Both the position numbers and the translations under genes were made by a program. 64,000 nucleotides of DNA, taken from a virus (taxonomy: Duplodnaviria > Caudoviricetes). The notes under the pieces are model-generated. The model was not told the origin of the DNA and searched no databases. It saw only the letters and a list, made by a program, of their open reading frames with translations. The stretch covers positions 18,053-82,052 of IMG/VR virus record IMGVR_UViG_3300023179_000070, one strand, 5' to 3'. Numbering within the stretch: position 1 is the stretch's first letter; each line of letters begins with the position of its first letter. Positions 33,066-55,002 of this stretch are shown piece after piece.

Positions 33066-34544
33066 TTAAGAGAGAGAATAGCCATTGGTATCACCATCGC
33101 CACCATCTCCACTACCACTGCCACCTCCACCACCACCGCCTCCACCACCGCCTCCACCACTAAATGTATTATCATCAGGGAAAACTATAACTGGAGGAGG
33201 AATTCCTGGAAAAAATGGACTTAAATCTGGAGCTACATTTATTGGTATGTCATGCCCACCTTGTCCTGCTCCATTCGCTGGAGCTGGAATAAGCTCTGGA
33301 GCAACTGGAACAACTGTGCTAACTGGAATTTCTGGATTTAAACTAACTGGAGTAGTTGAAGTTGCTGGAGGAATAATAGAAGCTTGTGCAGCAGCCCATG
33401 CAGCATATGCGCTTTTTTGATTATTTTCAAATTCTCTGGCTCTTGCAGCATATTGTTGCCATATTCCAATTTCTTGAGTCAATCTTGCAATATTTAAATC
33501 CATTACTACAATTTTACTATTCCAATATAATCCACCCTCGCCAAATGGCACAATTAATTGTATATTAAATACTCCACGACCAGAACCAGTTAATCCATAT
33601 TTAAACCATCCATTACCTTCACTTCGTATCACAGTTGTTCTGTTTGCGTACCATTCAGAAAGCCATCGAGCATATCTTGCGGCGTTTTGCGCTGCATAAG
33701 CTTGCTGTTCCATTAATGTTAAATTCTTATAATATCTTGCTTCCATATCTGCAAAAATTAGGGATTTACTTGATACTACTGAATTAAGTGTTGAATTTCC
33801 GAAATCACTTGCTAAATTTGAATCCCAATAACTTGTATTTACATCACTTGCGCTCTGAACTGTATTATCTAATGTAAATTCAAAATTAATTTTATCTTCT
33901 CCAAGAAGCAATAAAGTACTTAAACATTCTTTCTTTTCTTGACCATTCGCTGGCTTATAAGTCATTGTAGCAAAGTCTGCTTTATTTGAACATGTTATAA
34001 TTTTAGGCCTAATATAAAGTTTGCCTGTTATTGTTTTTTTCTCATTCAGCGCCATGCCTCTTCCCATTTTTTTATGTGCTGCAAAAATTTCAGATAATTC
34101 ATTCGCTGCATTTTGACTTCTATACATCGTTCTTTTTGAATAATCAAAATATTCTTTTATTTTCTTTTTTATTAACTCTTCTTGTGTTACTTCTAATTCT
34201 TTCAACATTCCCTCAATTTCTTCATCCAAAGAGTTATCCATATTTTTTGCGCATCCATCTTTATGCGTATTATAATATTCTTTAATTTTAGGATCTAAAT
34301 GAGTTAATTTAGTAATTTTTACATCCCCAACTGTTTTCCATTTCCATTGAATAGCATCATTAATATCTGAACTTATAAAAGCTTGACTAAATTGAAAATC
34401 TAAAGTCCATGTAGCAATTTGAAATTTATCATTTATATATAATGGAGTATATGTACAATCACAAGAATTTGCAGATTGAGTTGATATGGTAGATTTTTGA
34501 TAGGTTTCTAATGGACCTACTATATATTTTCTAGTGTCTGCCAT
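33066..34544 (-). CDS. hypothetical late protein with Pro-rich and poly-Gly C-terminus
   Basis: 492 aa; GTGTAT promoter at 34553-34558. Confidence 0.7.
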   Translation of the reverse strand: MADTRKYIVGPLETYQKSTISTQSANSCDCTYTPLYINDKFQIATWTLDFQFSQAFISSDINDAIQWKWKTVGDVKITKLTHLDPKIKEYYNTHKDGCAKNMDNSLDEEIEGMLKELEVTQEELIKKKIKEYFDYSKRTMYRSQNAANELSEIFAAHKKMGRGMALNEKKTITGKLYIRPKIITCSNKADFATMTYKPANGQEKKECLSTLLLLGEDKINFEFTLDNTVQSASDVNTSYWDSNLASDFGNSTLNSVVSSKSLIFADMEARYYKNLTLMEQQAYAAQNAARYARWLSEWYANRTTVIRSEGNGWFKYGLTGSGRGVFNIQLIVPFGEGGLYWNSKIVVMDLNIARLTQEIGIWQQYAARAREFENNQKSAYAAWAAAQASIIPPATSTTPVSLNPEIPVSTVVPVAPELIPAPANGAGQGGHDIPINVAPDLSPFFPGIPPPVIVFPDDNTFSGGGGGGGGGGGGGSGSGDGGDGDTNGYSLS

Positions 34545-34557
34545 ATAAGTATATACA

Positions 34558-35109
34558 CTATTTTTTAATTAAATTTATAAAATTAACCATTTGATCTTTT
34601 GTAAAATCATTTTTCATTACATTAATACAATAACATACAAATTCTACATTTCCTTTTATATATCCTATATTCGGATCGATTCTATCTAGGCTTGCTTTTG
34701 TAGGAGTTTTTTTAATATCTTCATCGCCACTTGTTCTACTTAGTTCCATTTGTATTTTTGTATATGGACAAATCCCATTTTGTTTATCCCAAATTTCTTT
34801 TAAATATTCTGTAGTTAAATCTGTTATGTATCCTTTTTGTTTACTTCGTGATCTAGCTTTATTTGCGTGATACTTAAATGGACTATATTGATCTAACCTA
34901 TTAGCTTCGTGTCCTTTTAGTAAAGATATATTACCTTTATTTTTTTCTAGTTTACTTGGATTGTTTTTATAATCTGCTTTTCCAGAGCATTTTAAGCTAC
35001 AATAAAATTTATTTTGACCAGCTTTTGCTTTTCTTTTATAATCGCTCTGTCTTATTTCGTGCTCTTTATTGCATTGAGCACAGATTATTTTTGTCTTTTT
35101 TATGTTCAT
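34558..35109 (-). CDS. HNH-like homing endonuclease
   Basis: CAQC..YCSLKC zinc motif; CPYT..SLDRIDPNIGYIKGNVEFVC..IN. Confidence 0.8.
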   Translation of the reverse strand: MNIKKTKIICAQCNKEHEIRQSDYKRKAKAGQNKFYCSLKCSGKADYKNNPSKLEKNKGNISLLKGHEANRLDQYSPFKYHANKARSRSKQKGYITDLTTEYLKEIWDKQNGICPYTKIQMELSRTSGDEDIKKTPTKASLDRIDPNIGYIKGNVEFVCYCINVMKNDFTKDQMVNFINLIKK

Positions 35110-35174
35110 ATAAAATTATATATAATATAAATATAATTGTCTAATAAAAATGCAGACACAGGGATTCGTTTACT

Positions 35175-35562
35175 TGGACCCGAGAGGAATTGAACCTCTG
35201 TCTTTTAAAAATCTAAATTAAAATACTACAAGTTTAGTTCTTTTTGTTTTTAGCTTTATATAGATAAAGAACAAACATACTTAGCGATTTTATTTTTAAT
35301 ACTTAATATTAATAGAATAAAAAAACTATTAATAATAAGACATCTAATTCCGCAACTATCCAATAGATGTGTCAAGGTAGTCACGCTGTAGAACTTAGGC
35401 TACAGAAGCGGTCATCTCAACAAGAGGAACTCTTGCAGAGATATGACCTTTATATTTTGCTGTTTTGGCAGTTAATATAATTGAAACTTTTTAAGGAGTC
35501 CTCGATTCAACCTCCACTTGCATTTCAATTTATTTTCTTAAAATCGAAACCAGTACGGGCCC
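35175..35562 (-). ncRNA. ssrA: tmRNA
   Basis: 5' GGGCCCGTACTGGTTTCGA pairs with 3' CGGGTCC-A, including the G3:U70 Ala determinant; T arm AGAGG-TTCAATT-CCTCT; pk1 GGAG/CTCC + TTGAA/TTCAA; tag ORF 35469-35395. Confidence 0.93.
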
Positions 35563-35634
35563 AATGTTAAAGAACTAACTAATATTACACATTATAAAGC
35601 TTTTAATAATTTTTGACAATCTTTTTTTAAATTA

Positions 35635-36580: not shown

Positions 36581-38071
36581 TTAGTCCTTTCCTTTATTTA
36601 AAAAGTTTTGTAATTTTCTATATTTTTTATTTTTTATTATAAGTTCTGGTATATTATTTTTAATAATTTGACGAATTTTATTTGAAATAGTATATCTTGC
36701 ATTTTTTTTCGCTGCATCTAGTGATGCATTTATATTATTTCCATATCCTCTACCAATTGCGTTTATATTATAATTAATAATTTCTACATTAGTATTATTA
36801 ACTTTTCCTTGTGAATTAAAAGAAGTTTCATCATAATTTAAAATTAAATTCTCTCTAATATAATAATTTATTTTTTGATCTAAAGCATCATCTGTTCCAA
36901 ATCCAGAGTATACAATATGAAATTGATTGTGTGTTCCAATTTTTTTATTTAATTCTGTTGAAATTAATTCTATTGTAAAATTAGTGTAAGCTGGAATTAT
37001 TCCATTCCAAGTGCCTGTATTAAATGTTTTATTTCCAGTATATAAACCTGTATAAAATTTATAAAATAAAGTATCTTTAATTGGTATATTTTGTGTTAAA
37101 TGTTGATTTTTATCTAATGAAATAAAATTATATATTCCAGTTTTTGGAAAAATATCTCCACTATAATATTCGCTTCCTAAAGTTAATGCTGGAATTTTAA
37201 TTCCTGATGAAATTTTTGTATTTATGGTAGTGGTCTTTTTATTAATTGTATTTATATTGTATACTAATGTATTTTGATATCCAGTATGAATTCCATGGGG
37301 AGAAATATAGCATATATTATATTTTTCTCCATTCCCAGTTGATATTAAAATTATTCCATTCAAATTTTTAGAATTAGTTTGATTTGTATCTAAATAATTA
37401 TATATTGGCGCAATTTTTGTATCACAAATATATGCATTATATTGCCAATTTTGTAAAGAACTTGGATAACTTAAATAAAAACCACTATAACTAGGATTTC
37501 CAGGAATTGCTCCAGAAGTATTGGATTTTGTCCATGCTCTATAAAATGTACTATTTGTAAAATCTAATCCTGTAAAAAATCCTGAAATTAAACTTGGATT
37601 ATATTTTTGATTATATTCACCTGTTAGTATTTTTGAATTTGAAAAATCTTTTGTAAAAGTAGCTCTAATAAATGTTTCATTTTTATTTAAATTAGTTATT
37701 TTTGGTTTTGTTTTATAAAATTGTTGAAAATAATCATAATTATTTGAATAAAAAATATATTCATCTGGAAAAAAATAAGATAATTGTCCAATTAATGGAA
37801 TTTCTAATTTATAATTTGTATAATTTTTTTTAAATTCTATAGGTATATGATAAGTTTGATAACTTTCTGAATTTTTTTTTGATTCAATTTTATTTTTTAA
37901 AATAAGTTCTAATTCTGGATTTTTTAAAGTACCTACATTAATTATATCTAATTTGACATTTTGTAAAGATTTATGTGTTATTTTTTCGTCATCAATAAAT
38001 TGTGATTCAGAATTTACTTTAAAAGTACTCCCAAATCCTAATTTAATTAAATCTTGTTTTGAAATTGACAT
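36581..38071 (-). CDS. hypothetical protein, probably virion-associated (SG/TG-rich)
   Basis: 496 aa, many SG/TG dipeptides as in the tail proteins. Confidence 0.6.
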   Translation of the reverse strand: MSISKQDLIKLGFGSTFKVNSESQFIDDEKITHKSLQNVKLDIINVGTLKNPELELILKNKIESKKNSESYQTYHIPIEFKKNYTNYKLEIPLIGQLSYFFPDEYIFYSNNYDYFQQFYKTKPKITNLNKNETFIRATFTKDFSNSKILTGEYNQKYNPSLISGFFTGLDFTNSTFYRAWTKSNTSGAIPGNPSYSGFYLSYPSSLQNWQYNAYICDTKIAPIYNYLDTNQTNSKNLNGIILISTGNGEKYNICYISPHGIHTGYQNTLVYNINTINKKTTTINTKISSGIKIPALTLGSEYYSGDIFPKTGIYNFISLDKNQHLTQNIPIKDTLFYKFYTGLYTGNKTFNTGTWNGIIPAYTNFTIELISTELNKKIGTHNQFHIVYSGFGTDDALDQKINYYIRENLILNYDETSFNSQGKVNNTNVEIINYNINAIGRGYGNNINASLDAAKKNARYTISNKIRQIIKNNIPELIIKNKKYRKLQNFLNKGKD

Positions 38072-38143
38072 ACATTTATGTTTAACCTTAACCCACCCAC
38101 TTCGCCCGTTTTAACTACTAGCTTTTCTGGGGCAGGTCTAAAT

Positions 38144-38363
38144 CATTTTGTTATCGTTAAATTGTTTATATTTAACATCTTTATATCACTATAAAGTTCA
38201 GACTATATCTTCTTACTTTCGTAAGTTTGGGCGCTCGTGGGCAATGTTATTGTTGGAACTCAATCGCCTAGTCGTTACACCTTACAACCTATCTTTCCCA
38301 GTTGTCTTGGCTCGGTATAATCTATTTTAGATTTCCACCGAATTCACCCAAAATGGTCATTTA
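38144..38363 (-). ncRNA. group I (IA-type) ribozyme core not interrupting any gene
   Basis: P3 TTTGGGTG/CGCCCAAA; P4 TTCGGT/ACCGAG; P5 AATCTA/TAGATT; Q ATACCGAGCCAAG; R GTAACGACTA; P7 GACTA/TAGTC; P8 CTTAC-GAAA-GTAAG; S AAGATATAGTC; P9 CTTTATA-GTGA-TATAAAG; candidate omega-G at 38144. Confidence 0.9.
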
Positions 38364-38419
38364 TTTAATAAAGAACTATTTTTTATTACACTATTTTTTT
38401 ATTTGTGTAATATAAATAT

Positions 38420-38998
38420 ATGCCTAATTTATTACCATATAGAGATTACAATGAGCACGATGTAATTAATTTATATACTTGCGTGACAGTTGCAAATAAA
38501 GGTATATTAGTTAAACCAATAACTTCCCCAAAAGATGATAATGGGACAGATAACTCTAGCGCTGGTCCATTAAAACTAACTTCTGATGGAGTTGGTGAAA
38601 GATTTAAAAATACTATAAGTGATTTATTTGAAATTGTAGGAGAGGTTTCTCCAGTTGTCAATTATAATGACGTTCCAGGACCAATAGGTATTTTATTGTA
38701 TGATGTTAGGGATTTAGATGAAAATGGTGAAAAATTAATATATAATCCACGAAAAATGGCAGAAAAAAATATAGTTCTTCCAAAAGTTCAAGCGGCACCA
38801 ATTTTAACTAAAGGAATTATTTTAATAAATGATATAGATACTTTGAGTAAAACTGGCGGTGGAGGATTACCTTCTATTGGTGCAGCTGCTTATGTTGGTG
38901 ATGATGGTAGGATAGGAACTGATGGAATAATAGTATTAGGAAAATTTTTAAGTAAAATAGATCAAAATGGTTACTGTTTGGTTAAATTAAATATTTAA
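38420..38998 (+). CDS. putative capsid decoration/cement protein
   Basis: LLPYRDYNEHDVINL, GILLYDVRDLDENGEKL, PILTKG, LGKFLS..DQNG pattern; late promoter at 38405. Confidence 0.45.
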   Translation: MPNLLPYRDYNEHDVINLYTCVTVANKGILVKPITSPKDDNGTDNSSAGPLKLTSDGVGERFKNTISDLFEIVGEVSPVVNYNDVPGPIGILLYDVRDLDENGEKLIYNPRKMAEKNIVLPKVQAAPILTKGIILINDIDTLSKTGGGGLPSIGAAAYVGDDGRIGTDGIIVLGKFLSKIDQNGYCLVKLNI

Positions 38999-39213: not shown

Positions 39214-39242
39214 TTGACAAAACTTCAAACTTAATATATTAT
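39214..39242 (+). promoter_or_regulatory. sigma70-type promoter driving a non-coding region
   Basis: TTGACA-17 nt-TATTAT with no downstream plus-strand ORF of 60 aa or more. Confidence 0.7.
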
Positions 39243-39249
39243 AAGTTTA

Positions 39250-39575
39250 CATAGTTCCCAATTAGAGCAGTTTGTTGATGTCAAATAATCAACTATCAAT
39301 CCTTGAGATAGCAATGTCCTAAGGGCTGACAACTATTAAAACCTTCATTTGTACATAATATGGCTAAAGAAGGAAATGTAGCTATAGGCATCGCAGAATG
39401 TAGTGATCGAAGCTACCTCTGATCCGTAAGTGCGATGGCCCATTCATCACTGAGATCGTGGTGAAATTTGGAGTCAAAAGAAAAGTTGGATTGATAATAC
39501 CCAACTTCAGATATTTAAAATCTGGAGGTAAAGCCCTTTTGGATATCAAAGAAAAGTTAAATAATTAGGATATCG
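39250..39575 (+). ncRNA. unassigned structured RNA (~325 nt)
   Basis: about 10 helices, a GCAA tetraloop, a pseudoknot and G-U pairs favouring the plus strand; higher GC than the flanks; own promoter. Confidence 0.6.
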
Positions 39576-54437: not shown

Positions 54438-54953
54438 ATGAAATATAAAAATAATAATTGTAAATTTTGTAAAAGATTAATTTTAAATAAAGGCTCACTA
54501 GTTTCTCATATGCTATGTTGTATTAAAAATAAAAATAGAGTTAAAAGAATAAGATCCTCAAAAGCTGGTAGAAAGAAAGGGTCAATCGCTTGGAATAAAA
54601 ATAAAAAATTTCCAAATAAAATTTTAAATCGAATACTATTCCAAATAAAATCTGGAGAATATAAACAATTTTGTGAAGCAGTAATAAGAAGAACAGTTAA
54701 ACAATATTTAATATATAAATATGGTAATAAATGCATGATCTGTGGTTTAACAGAATGGCAAAATCAAAAAATACCATTGGTATGTGATCACATTGATGGA
54801 AATCCACAAAATATCAACATAACAAACTTTAGAGTTATTTGTAATAATTGTGATTCATTATTGCCGACATTTAAAGGAAAAAATAAAGGCAAAGGTAGGA
54901 AAGCGAGATATTCTGGAACGATGGCTGAGAGGTCTAAAGCAGAAGCCTACTAA
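54438..54953 (+). CDS. HNH homing endonuclease between two tRNAs
   Basis: CMIC..LVCDHIDGN..N..NFRVICNNC; AWNK motif. Confidence 0.85.
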   Translation: MKYKNNNCKFCKRLILNKGSLVSHMLCCIKNKNRVKRIRSSKAGRKKGSIAWNKNKKFPNKILNRILFQIKSGEYKQFCEAVIRRTVKQYLIYKYGNKCMICGLTEWQNQKIPLVCDHIDGNPQNINITNFRVICNNCDSLLPTFKGKNKGKGRKARYSGTMAERSKAEAY

Positions 54954-55002
54954 GCTTCCGATGGTTTAATATCATCCGTAGGTTCGAATCCTACTCGTTC
55001 CG
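54915..55002 (+). tRNA. tRNA-Ser(ACT)
   Basis: GGAACGA/TCGTTCC-G, GAAGC-CTACTAA-GCTTC, long variable arm GATGG..TCATC, GTAGG-TTCGAAT-CCTAC. Confidence 0.9.

Follow-up and report, generated by a model that had tools for sequence, protein, structure and literature searches.

The window analysed here is a stretch of 64,000 nucleotides (nt) from the 82-kb uncultured-virus record of a lake phage (IMGVR_UViG_3300023179_000070); it is AT-rich and, according to an RNA-gene scan, carries a transfer-messenger RNA (tmRNA) and three transfer RNA (tRNA) genes. A 348-nt gap separates two divergent genes, one for a protein of 192 amino acids (aa; start 38420, plus strand) and one for a protein of 496 aa (start 38071, minus strand), and this gap is occupied by a group I ribozyme that reads in the direction of the latter. 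The ribozyme appears to be free-standing, i.e., to have its own promoter and no host gene, a reading supported by the arrangement described below, and the strand that its guide would pair with lies 3' of the core instead of 5' of it, just ahead of the 496-aa gene. This ribozyme-first layout is kept in at least 48 distinct loci.

The ribozyme core and its surroundings

The Rfam family RF00028 (Intron_gpI) matches 38179-38397 of the minus strand with 58.7 bits (gathering cut-off 50, E 2.8e-14), with model positions 1-253 covered. The whole 82-kb record holds this single match, at an identical score, and a motif search gave no second copy of the ribozyme. When 37900-38600 was compared with all 4227 Rfam families at E values of up to 10, only RF00028 and a chance fragment of HgcG were returned. 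The helices were placed by mapping onto the window an alignment (A2, 17 rows) of one group of relatives, group A, to which the window itself belongs. In minus-strand order the promoter-like element, the core and the tail are as follows (bp, base pairs).

38373-38391, minus strand: promoter-like element GTGTAAT-N6-AGTTC, with GTGTAA at 38391-38386 (composite and its conservation)
38179-38352, minus strand: catalytic core (RF00028, 58.7 bits, and pair counts on A2)
38352-45/38233-26, minus strand: P3 (A2 mapped onto the window)
38341-36/38317-12, minus strand: P4 (invariant in A2)
38332-29/38323-20, minus strand: P5 (A2)
38311-09/38281-79, minus strand: P6 (invariant in A2)
38305-01/38288-84, minus strand: P6a (4 of 5 pairs changed on both sides)
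38273-69/38205-01, minus strand: P7 (invariant in A2)
38268-63/38245-40, minus strand: extra hairpin between P7 and the 3' strand of P3
38225-21/38216-12, minus strand: P8, with a GAAA loop (3 of 5 pairs changed on both sides)
38196-90/38185-79, minus strand: P9, with a GTGA loop (3 of 7 pairs changed on both sides)
38156-38176, minus strand: P9.1 hairpin, 7 bp (6 of 7 pairs doubly changed, 100% of cells pair)
38144-38155, minus strand: 3' tail GATAACAAAATG, closing with omega-G 38144 (3' splice site predicted between 38144 and 38143)

The ribozyme is compact, with about 215 nt from guide to terminal G; P2 is missing from its Rfam alignment, and the extra hairpin gives it what we take to be a resemblance to phage-type introns of subgroup IA. 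Across A2, standard pairs are found in 98.1% of 1037 cells and 22 of 61 pairs are doubly changed, the compensatory changes falling mostly in P6a, P8, P9 and P9.1. Control alignments with slid partners pair in 34-42%, and the covariation score was reached by none of 500 shuffles. As P4, P6 and P7 are invariant, they provide no evidence either way on their pairing; the junction strands and P7 strands typical of active introns are themselves invariant. The core is kept under selection and has the crossing P3/P7 fold. A TAAC motif with a G a few nt on is present in all 55 loci chosen by the guide/tail rule described below, G38144 of the window stands after the conserved GATAACA tail and would act as omega-G, and in a second group of relatives, group B, T-G-G around the 3' splice site is invariant (18/18 rows). 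By the established group I pathway, the window element may self-splice with guanosine.

Detection by Rfam proved to depend on the length of the scan. The whole-window scans (gathering mode and E-value mode, default filters) overlooked the ribozyme, which was listed by the 700-nt scan and by the whole-record search, i.e., the speed filters lose AT-rich ribozymes of this class once a scan exceeds a few kb. Among the relatives, one ribozyme visible in the alignment was missed (L002), as were 5 of 16 loci in one set and 6 of 10 in another, although all of the latter carry the motifs. Given these recurrent losses, a missing Rfam row was never taken as a missing ribozyme, and surveys at default Rfam settings will undercount this class. 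Besides the window, 15 loci score above the curated cut-off.

The composite GTGTAA-N7-AGTTC, in which AGTTC follows GTGTAA by 7 nt, occurs twice in 64 kb (0.09 copies expected), once at the ribozyme, where GTGTAA ends 27 nt upstream of the guide, and once before the tmRNA (35572-35590). Relatives outside group B always have GTTC at a distance of 14 nt from the first base of TGTAA, and the guide follows it by 13-21 nt. A sigma-70 scan of the ribozyme stretch of the window returned 0 sites and GTGTAAT by itself is not enriched (9 copies vs 7.8 expected), so the promoter call rests on the composite and on its conservation. Transcription would start at this element, about 15-20 nt ahead of the guide, and AGTTCTTT, which we take to be boxA-like, probably comprises the first transcribed bases; AGTTCTTTAA, noted alongside the element that tmRNA and ribozyme have in common, resembles the boxA antitermination box of rrn operons. 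In group B, TTGACA/TATAAT-like promoters end 9-15 nt ahead of the guide. The tmRNA itself (35174-35590, minus strand; RF00023, 105 bits) is directly followed by an open reading frame (ORF) for an HNH endonuclease (34558-35109, minus strand; PHROG 3322).

The element interrupts no gene in the manner of an intron, with a 5' exon before and a 3' exon after it, since there is no same-strand ORF or RNA gene upstream, no copy of its own target 4-mer in the 60 nt before the guide, and a promoter-like element directly in front. In the ORF list of the window no frame of at least 40 aa enters the element from upstream on the minus strand, and the RNA-gene scan of the window placed no tRNA near it. This agrees with a preliminary description drawn from the letters of the window, each structural claim of which was reproduced. 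The mapping of A2 reproduces the intact minus-strand P3-P9 core that it had claimed, including the coordinates of P3 and P7 and the GAAA and GTGA loops of P8 and P9; its candidate omega-G (38144) and its guide GACC (38358-55) lie exactly where it had put them; the covariance model that it named as a check scores 58.7 bits against a cut-off of 50; and its remarks that P2 is absent, that the ribozyme starts about 25 nt after GTGTAA (27 nt by our count to the guide) and that neither a tRNA nor a coding exon precedes it were borne out, the upstream neighbour being the divergent 192-aa gene.

No Pfam or PHROG family matches either the 192-aa or the 496-aa gene. L003 encodes a relative of the former at 50% identity; its neighbours there are different and no ribozyme is present. 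An IStron or other transposon-borne intron was ruled out, as the 496-aa ORF and a 312-aa ORF show no transposase, TnpB or any Pfam or PHROG family; so was an intron with an inner homing endonuclease, the sole HNH ORF (34558-35109) being 3 kb off, past the tmRNA. Elsewhere in the window, the GC profile climbs to 0.42-0.43 at 39214-39573, a gene-free stretch two genes from the ribozyme, and a 492-aa ORF (33066-34544, minus strand) has a proline/glycine-rich tail that ends in 13 glycines and no Pfam or PHROG match. A tRNA with a long variable arm is encoded at 54915-55002 (plus strand, 56.8 bits), and a weak match to the plastid 3'-UTR (untranslated region) family RF04351 on the opposite strand (36 bits, cut-off 68) is probably due to chance.

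Guide, target and the piece between them

The remaining parts of the element concern the pairing of the guide with its site (P1), the piece of RNA that separates this site from the core, and the gene that follows.

38359-38363, minus strand: TAAAT, 5' flank of the guide and P10 strand, complementary to ATTTA at 38143-38139 (read from the sequence)
38355-38358, minus strand: internal guide GACC, the ribozyme strand of P1 (columns 11-14 of A2)
38084-38143, minus strand: 60-nt "exon", the predicted circle (RNAfold; the homologous helix of group B covaries)
38138-38130 with 38098-38090, minus strand: closing helix of the exon, 9 bp (RNAfold)
38084-38087, minus strand: P1 target GGTT (predicted 5' splice or cleavage site between 38084 and 38083)
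36581-38071, minus strand: 496-aa gene (ORF; after the cut its mRNA would start at 38083, with a 12-nt leader)

The target GGTT thus lies 60 nt after omega-G 38144, 270 nt downstream of the guide and 12 nt ahead of the ATG of the 496-aa gene. Relatives were collected with a 17-nt pattern (21 stretches in viral contigs) and a 25-base gapped pattern (112 in metagenome contigs), which, pooled with the window, make 132 matches and 117 distinct sequences, 86 of them with a compact core. A G-initial guide at the expected offset together with the TAAC tail motif was found in 55 of these 86 compact cores; a locus that fell outside the regular expression (L010) has the same layout by eye. Setting aside three loci that look like ordinary introns (L015, L077, L108) and two partial ones (L028, L106) leaves 50 evaluable relatives, and 48 of them have behind the terminal G a U-ended 4-mer complementary to their own guide. 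These 48 loci comprise 17 aligned as group A, 18 aligned as group B and 13 unaligned. Group A has the GTGTAA-N7-AGTTC element and then a homologue of the 496-aa gene, group B belongs to other phages, its 76-nt exon being of marine origin and abundant, and the remaining relatives form several further lineages with longer inserts. Among cultured phages, the collection searched holds no record with at least 80% coverage of either query and no full-length copy. Two loci have tRNA sequence after the core, a complete tRNA in L036 and a tRNA 3' half in L068, and may be conventional tRNA introns of the clade.

Guide and target change together. In the first relative to be aligned, guide GGTC faces a corresponding downstream GGCT, and altogether 8 guide:target combinations occur, i.e., GGCC:GGCT (25), GTCC:GGAT (7), GACC:GGTT (6), GGTC:GGCT (5), GCGT:ACGT (2), and GATC:GGTT, GGTC:GACT and GGGC:GCCT (1 each). 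A 48-row tree of the cores, built without the guide, requires at least 14 guide:target switches. All four Watson-Crick pairs occur at the middle position of P1, and the pair beside the G.U in A2 is G-C in 6 rows, U-A in 5 and A-U in 4, two rows being shifted by one alignment column. The G.U at the cut site is constant (17/17 in group A, 18/18 in group B), and the pairing of group B reaches up to 3 bp beyond the cut site and covaries there as well. Because the target rule uses the guide itself, swap controls were run on those 47 loci whose ORF start could be called automatically: a strict complement within 49 nt before the ATG was found for 38 of 47 own guides and for 22 of 282 swapped ones. 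Judged by this covariation, P1, with a G.U at the cut site, is formed in cis with the downstream target.

Where several units share a contig, each has its own guide: GACC and GTCC on a contig of 31.6 kb (L004/L008), GGCC and GGGC on one of 132 kb (L076/L086), and GGCC or GCCA, GACC and GTCC on one of 147 kb (L146/L152/L154). From these three contigs, distinct guide:target pairs would stop cross-reaction among the units of one genome.

Terminal G and target are 60-80 nt apart in group A; group B has a distance of 75-79 nt, most often 76, and the other lineages have 105-184 nt. At most loci the minimum-energy fold of the exon pairs its start with the bases just before the target, which is itself left free. 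The window exon folds with -16.3 kcal/mol (RNAfold, z -2.1) and its ends are paired to each other, in such a way that the closing helix leaves ATTTA (38143-38139) free for P10 and AAGGTT free for P1 (38087-84). In group B the exon forms a 10-bp helix that begins immediately behind the terminal G and closes immediately ahead of the target; 99.4% of its cells pair, and 8 of its 10 pairs are changed on both sides. Such a helix would hold the two splice sites adjacent to each other, which is not needed for a plain cut. The P10 run of the window (5 bp) is among the longest of the 48 loci, and the family mean of 2.17 bp exceeds the 1.43 bp of permuted partners (0 of 1000 permutations as high); for the family as a whole, the exon-exon helix seems to take over the role of P10. 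The exons resemble no known RNA family, as 16 scanned loci gave nothing but RF00028, and an identity as a tRNA or permuted tRNA was ruled out with aragorn, which found genes in 0 of 48 doubled exons.

In four of the 48 loci, all in group B (L018, L058, L065, L132), a T-run follows 31-97 nt past the predicted cut site and no gene stands directly behind, the next ORF beginning 82-134 nt past that site. L065 has a second promoter ahead of the next ORF, and after its cut site a hairpin and U-run can be read by eye; the terminator scan did not list this hairpin, whose loop is above the limit of the scan, and for this reason T-runs were counted instead. These four look like self-contained RNA genes whose sole products would be the 76-nt piece and the ribozyme.

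Group A is tied to one gene family in particular. A single-sequence search for loci of the 496-aa protein gave none, and a protein-alignment search of viral contigs gave 16 (27-44% identity), all 16 with group I core motifs upstream on the same strand (Rfam listed 4 of the 10 scanned). Six of the seven new distinct loci among them have by eye a guide:target pair of their own. The predicted cut site lies 2-20 nt before the start codon in group A and in most other loci outside group B, with A-rich bases following it in group A. The protein has 60 homologues, none of them named, and no Pfam, PHROG or PDB sequence match; its AlphaFold model is beta-rich (pLDDT, the predicted local distance difference test, 78), and gave nothing at an E value of 0.001 or better in Foldseek and a best Z of 6.3, to CUB-like beta sandwiches and within the noise range, in VIA-align.

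A predicted cis reaction and its alternatives

We consider this to be a ribozyme-first element with a permuted P1 at the very start of a late transcript. Transcription from the phage promoter about 15-20 nt ahead of the guide would begin so near to the guide that the RNA would lack a 5' exon. The P2-less core (P3-P9, P9.1) would fold, and GACC (38358-55) would pair in cis with GGUU (38087-84). In the first step, free guanosine or guanosine triphosphate (GTP) may attack between U38084 and A38083. The downstream mRNA would thereby be released with one G added to its 5' end, and its leader ahead of the ATG of the 496-aa gene would be A-rich and 12 nt long. In the second step, the 3'-OH of U38084, held at the 3' splice site by the 9-bp exon-exon helix and the 5-bp P10, could attack behind omega-G 38144, whereby 38143 to 38084 would be closed as a 60-nt circle and the linear ribozyme freed. 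The cut in cis at 38084/38083 is, in our judgement, quite probable; completion to a circle is somewhat favoured. Taken as a whole, a G-dependent cis cut that frees the mRNA and is followed by back-splicing is the best reading, and one that we hold with moderate confidence.

The choice of cut site needs comment, as the window has a second GGTT (38093-38090), 6 nt from the first, which would give a piece of 54 nt. We prefer 38084/38083 because the second GGTT is buried in the closing helix and because 54 nt falls outside the 60-80 nt range of group A.

Several observations weigh against the proposed reaction. The choice between 60 and 54 nt depends on comparison alone, P1 is only 4 bp plus 1, and the rule by which targets were picked relies on the guide itself; when G.U pairs are allowed, the swap control yields 41 of 47 for own guides and 113 of 282 for swapped ones, a weaker contrast that arises because several guides share targets. 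Individual loci fit poorly, i.e., L026 has one mismatch in P1, L085 has a C in place of the U at the predicted cut site and then a terminator-like hairpin, and L146 is ambiguous, as it fits only with the guide shifted by one base, beside an extra G in P3. With at least 3 bp in 15 of 48 loci, P10 is a weak feature of the family, the exons of group A cannot be aligned in sequence, and fold z-scores are modest (+0.9 to -3.9 across the 48 loci). Finally, the relatives are related to each other, so that the counts are not independent events.

The first alternative is that the element processes leaders and does nothing else: the cut at 38084/38083 would give a short leader with a 5' G, and ligation would be absent or a useless side reaction. 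The short distance of 2-20 nt between cut site and ATG, seen in group A and at most of the other loci outside group B, the presence of the ribozyme with the gene family in 16/16 protein-selected loci, the unconserved exon sequence of group A and the weak P10 are all in keeping with such a role. Against it stand the terminal G and tail, which are retained, the exon-exon helix, which brings the 3' splice site to the cut site, is kept by compensatory change and is not needed for a plain cut, an exon length that is nearly fixed, and the four of 48 units that have no gene directly behind them. The same four features (kept tail and terminal G, group B exon helix, near-fixed exon length and units without a gene behind) support a second step, and we regard processing of the leader by itself as unlikely.

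Less probable still is a structured 5' leader without catalysis that acts as a stabiliser, offers a platform for antitermination or impedes translation, with the downstream complementarity merely closing it. Its place at the 5' end of the transcript and the boxA-like element in common with the tmRNA promoter would suit such a function, but selection for a scaffold alone would not keep catalytic features, i.e., the invariant intron-type junction and P7 strands, the G.U at the cut site in 35/35 rows and an Rfam score above the curated cut-off in the window and 15 loci.

An action in trans, by which the free 5' guide would cut GGUU-bearing RNAs (e.g., host tRNAs) or splice the 3' piece onto them, seems very improbable. 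Engineered trans-acting ribozymes do have their guide near the 5' end, as here, and a 4-nt guide has many possible targets. Nevertheless, close relatives differ in their guides, each change of which is matched at the downstream site of the same locus, and differing guides on one contig fit specificity in cis better than a shared host target. The preliminary description had proposed three activities, back-splicing, trans-splicing of the 3' exon onto GGUU-containing RNAs (such as tRNA T-arms) and processing of the 5' leader of the 496-aa gene. The first and third are now favoured as the two halves of one cis reaction, because the guide covaries with a cis target, not named in that description, which is 60 nt past omega-G and 12 nt short of the ATG; the second gains nothing, since the guide changes together with its own downstream site. 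The TAAAT/ATTTA complementarity that it had read as P10 is present (38363-59 with 38143-39), and a free-standing unit with its own promoter, also claimed there, recurs with a conserved promoter-like element in front in 48 of the 50 evaluable relatives, the same architecture that it had suggested looking for in related phages.

Least probable of all is that an upstream exon has been overlooked and the element is its ordinary intron, or that it is an intron in decay whose gene was lost. About 10 loci of the same clade have open frames through the upstream 150 nt and look like ordinary introns, and in Vibrio phage VEN the terminase gene is interrupted by an intron that contains a homing endonuclease, but the window has neither a same-strand ORF upstream nor a GGTT within 60 nt ahead of the guide, a stretch in which just 6 of the 48 loci have any 4-mer of their own target, and the layout is kept with compensatory changes across loci whose downstream proteins share only 27-60% identity, unlike a remnant.

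Returning to the cis reaction that we favour, we regard the element as a natural variant within a known class of ribozymes, and one that is both conserved and widely distributed. More tentatively, and with somewhat less than even confidence, we suggest that phages of lakes and seas keep a dedicated type of gene (promoter, P2-less ribozyme, folded RNA, target) that makes small circles with a job of their own, that the same reaction gives the next late mRNA a G-tagged, near-leaderless 5' end, and that guides and targets drift together so that units stay orthogonal. The circles, of 60 nt here and 76 nt in the second group, might for instance be nuclease-proof decoys or regulators of infection. 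The unalignable exons of group A and their modest z-scores argue against a sequence-specific role for the circle.

Comparison with known systems

Group I ribozymes are known in nature as introns, i.e., passengers that remove themselves, and here one has apparently been turned into a self-standing device that processes the phage transcript at whose head it lies. Should the predicted reaction occur, it would be the first case of circles made by a phage through group I chemistry and a new way to set the 5' end of a bacterial mRNA, for which guanosine or GTP might serve as the input signal. The nearest natural kin are the conventional phage group I introns of RF00028, with which the element shares the catalytic core, the 3' tail and an Rfam score above the cut-off; relatives of this conventional type were found within the genes for terminase and for DNA polymerase. 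Such introns interrupt genes, have the P1 hairpin ahead of the core and often a homing endonuclease, whereas the phage element interrupts nothing and has its P1 target behind the core. An allosteric group I ribozyme coupled to a riboswitch is known from Clostridioides difficile (c-di-GMP-II type). No riboswitch aptamer family matched the window stretch or 16 related loci, and the gap between promoter motif and guide is about 27 nt.

The lariat-capping ribozyme GIR1 branches to a 3-nt lariat, lacks the G.U pair of P1 and resides within a eukaryotic twin-ribozyme intron. It presumably has an Rfam family of its own, and no family other than RF00028 was significant for the phage element, for which the ordinary guanosine pathway is expected instead. 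The likeness lies in a ribozyme of group I type that stands before an ORF and cuts (a predicted cut, for the phage) just behind itself, tailoring the 5' end of an mRNA. GIR1, a group I derivative upstream of a homing-endonuclease ORF, is mentioned in PMC8637638, a paper on circularly permuted bacterial group II introns, which are natural, have a permuted domain order and make RNA circles; they belong to another ribozyme class with other chemistry, and the text as searched holds no group I counterpart.

Natural back-splicing by a group I intron has been described for ND5-717, a giant intron in the mitochondria of corallimorpharians, or mushroom corals (Chi et al. 2019, PMC6545197). It measures 18-19 kb, lies within a mitochondrial protein gene and is permuted through the layout of transcripts on a circular genome. 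The phage unit is, by comparison, compact and stand-alone; it has a promoter of its own, and its exon, 60-184 nt in length, is non-coding. In the literature searched, which covered neither subscription journals nor supplements, a natural phage or bacterial group I case of this layout was not found, and the layout seems to be represented there by engineered constructs and this one coral mitochondrial intron only.

Permuted intron-exon (PIE) constructs, derived from the introns of Anabaena pre-tRNA and T4 td, yield a circular exon because their 3' splice site comes first on the transcript and their 5' splice site second; a peripheral loop is where their core is divided, and one half stands on either side of the exon. 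The phage element likewise has the 3' splice site ahead of the 5' splice site on the transcript, but P3 to P9.1 form one uninterrupted core, and no part other than the substrate strand of P1 is displaced.

The closest likeness is to engineered constructs of the STS type, which we take to be built on a eukaryotic IC1 intron. Constructs with the same order of parts make circular RNA (PMC10457212; PMC10415121), and a further one of this order serves the same end (PMC11417360). What they share with the phage element is a guide at the 5' end, an intact core, a terminal G, an insert and a U-ended target that pairs with the guide, an order that runs in the window through 38358-55, 38352-38179, 38144, 38143-38084 and 38087-84 and likewise in 48 of 50 relatives. 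In PMC10415121 a P10 also forms, between the start of the insert and the 5' portion of the guide, as TAAAT and ATTTA could form one here. These constructs are laboratory designs with long added guides or antisense arms; the phage element, known here from its sequence, is natural and P2-less, has a P1 of 4-5 bp and an exon-exon helix in place of the added arms. If the reaction proceeds as we propose, it would be the natural counterpart of these engineered circular-RNA constructs.

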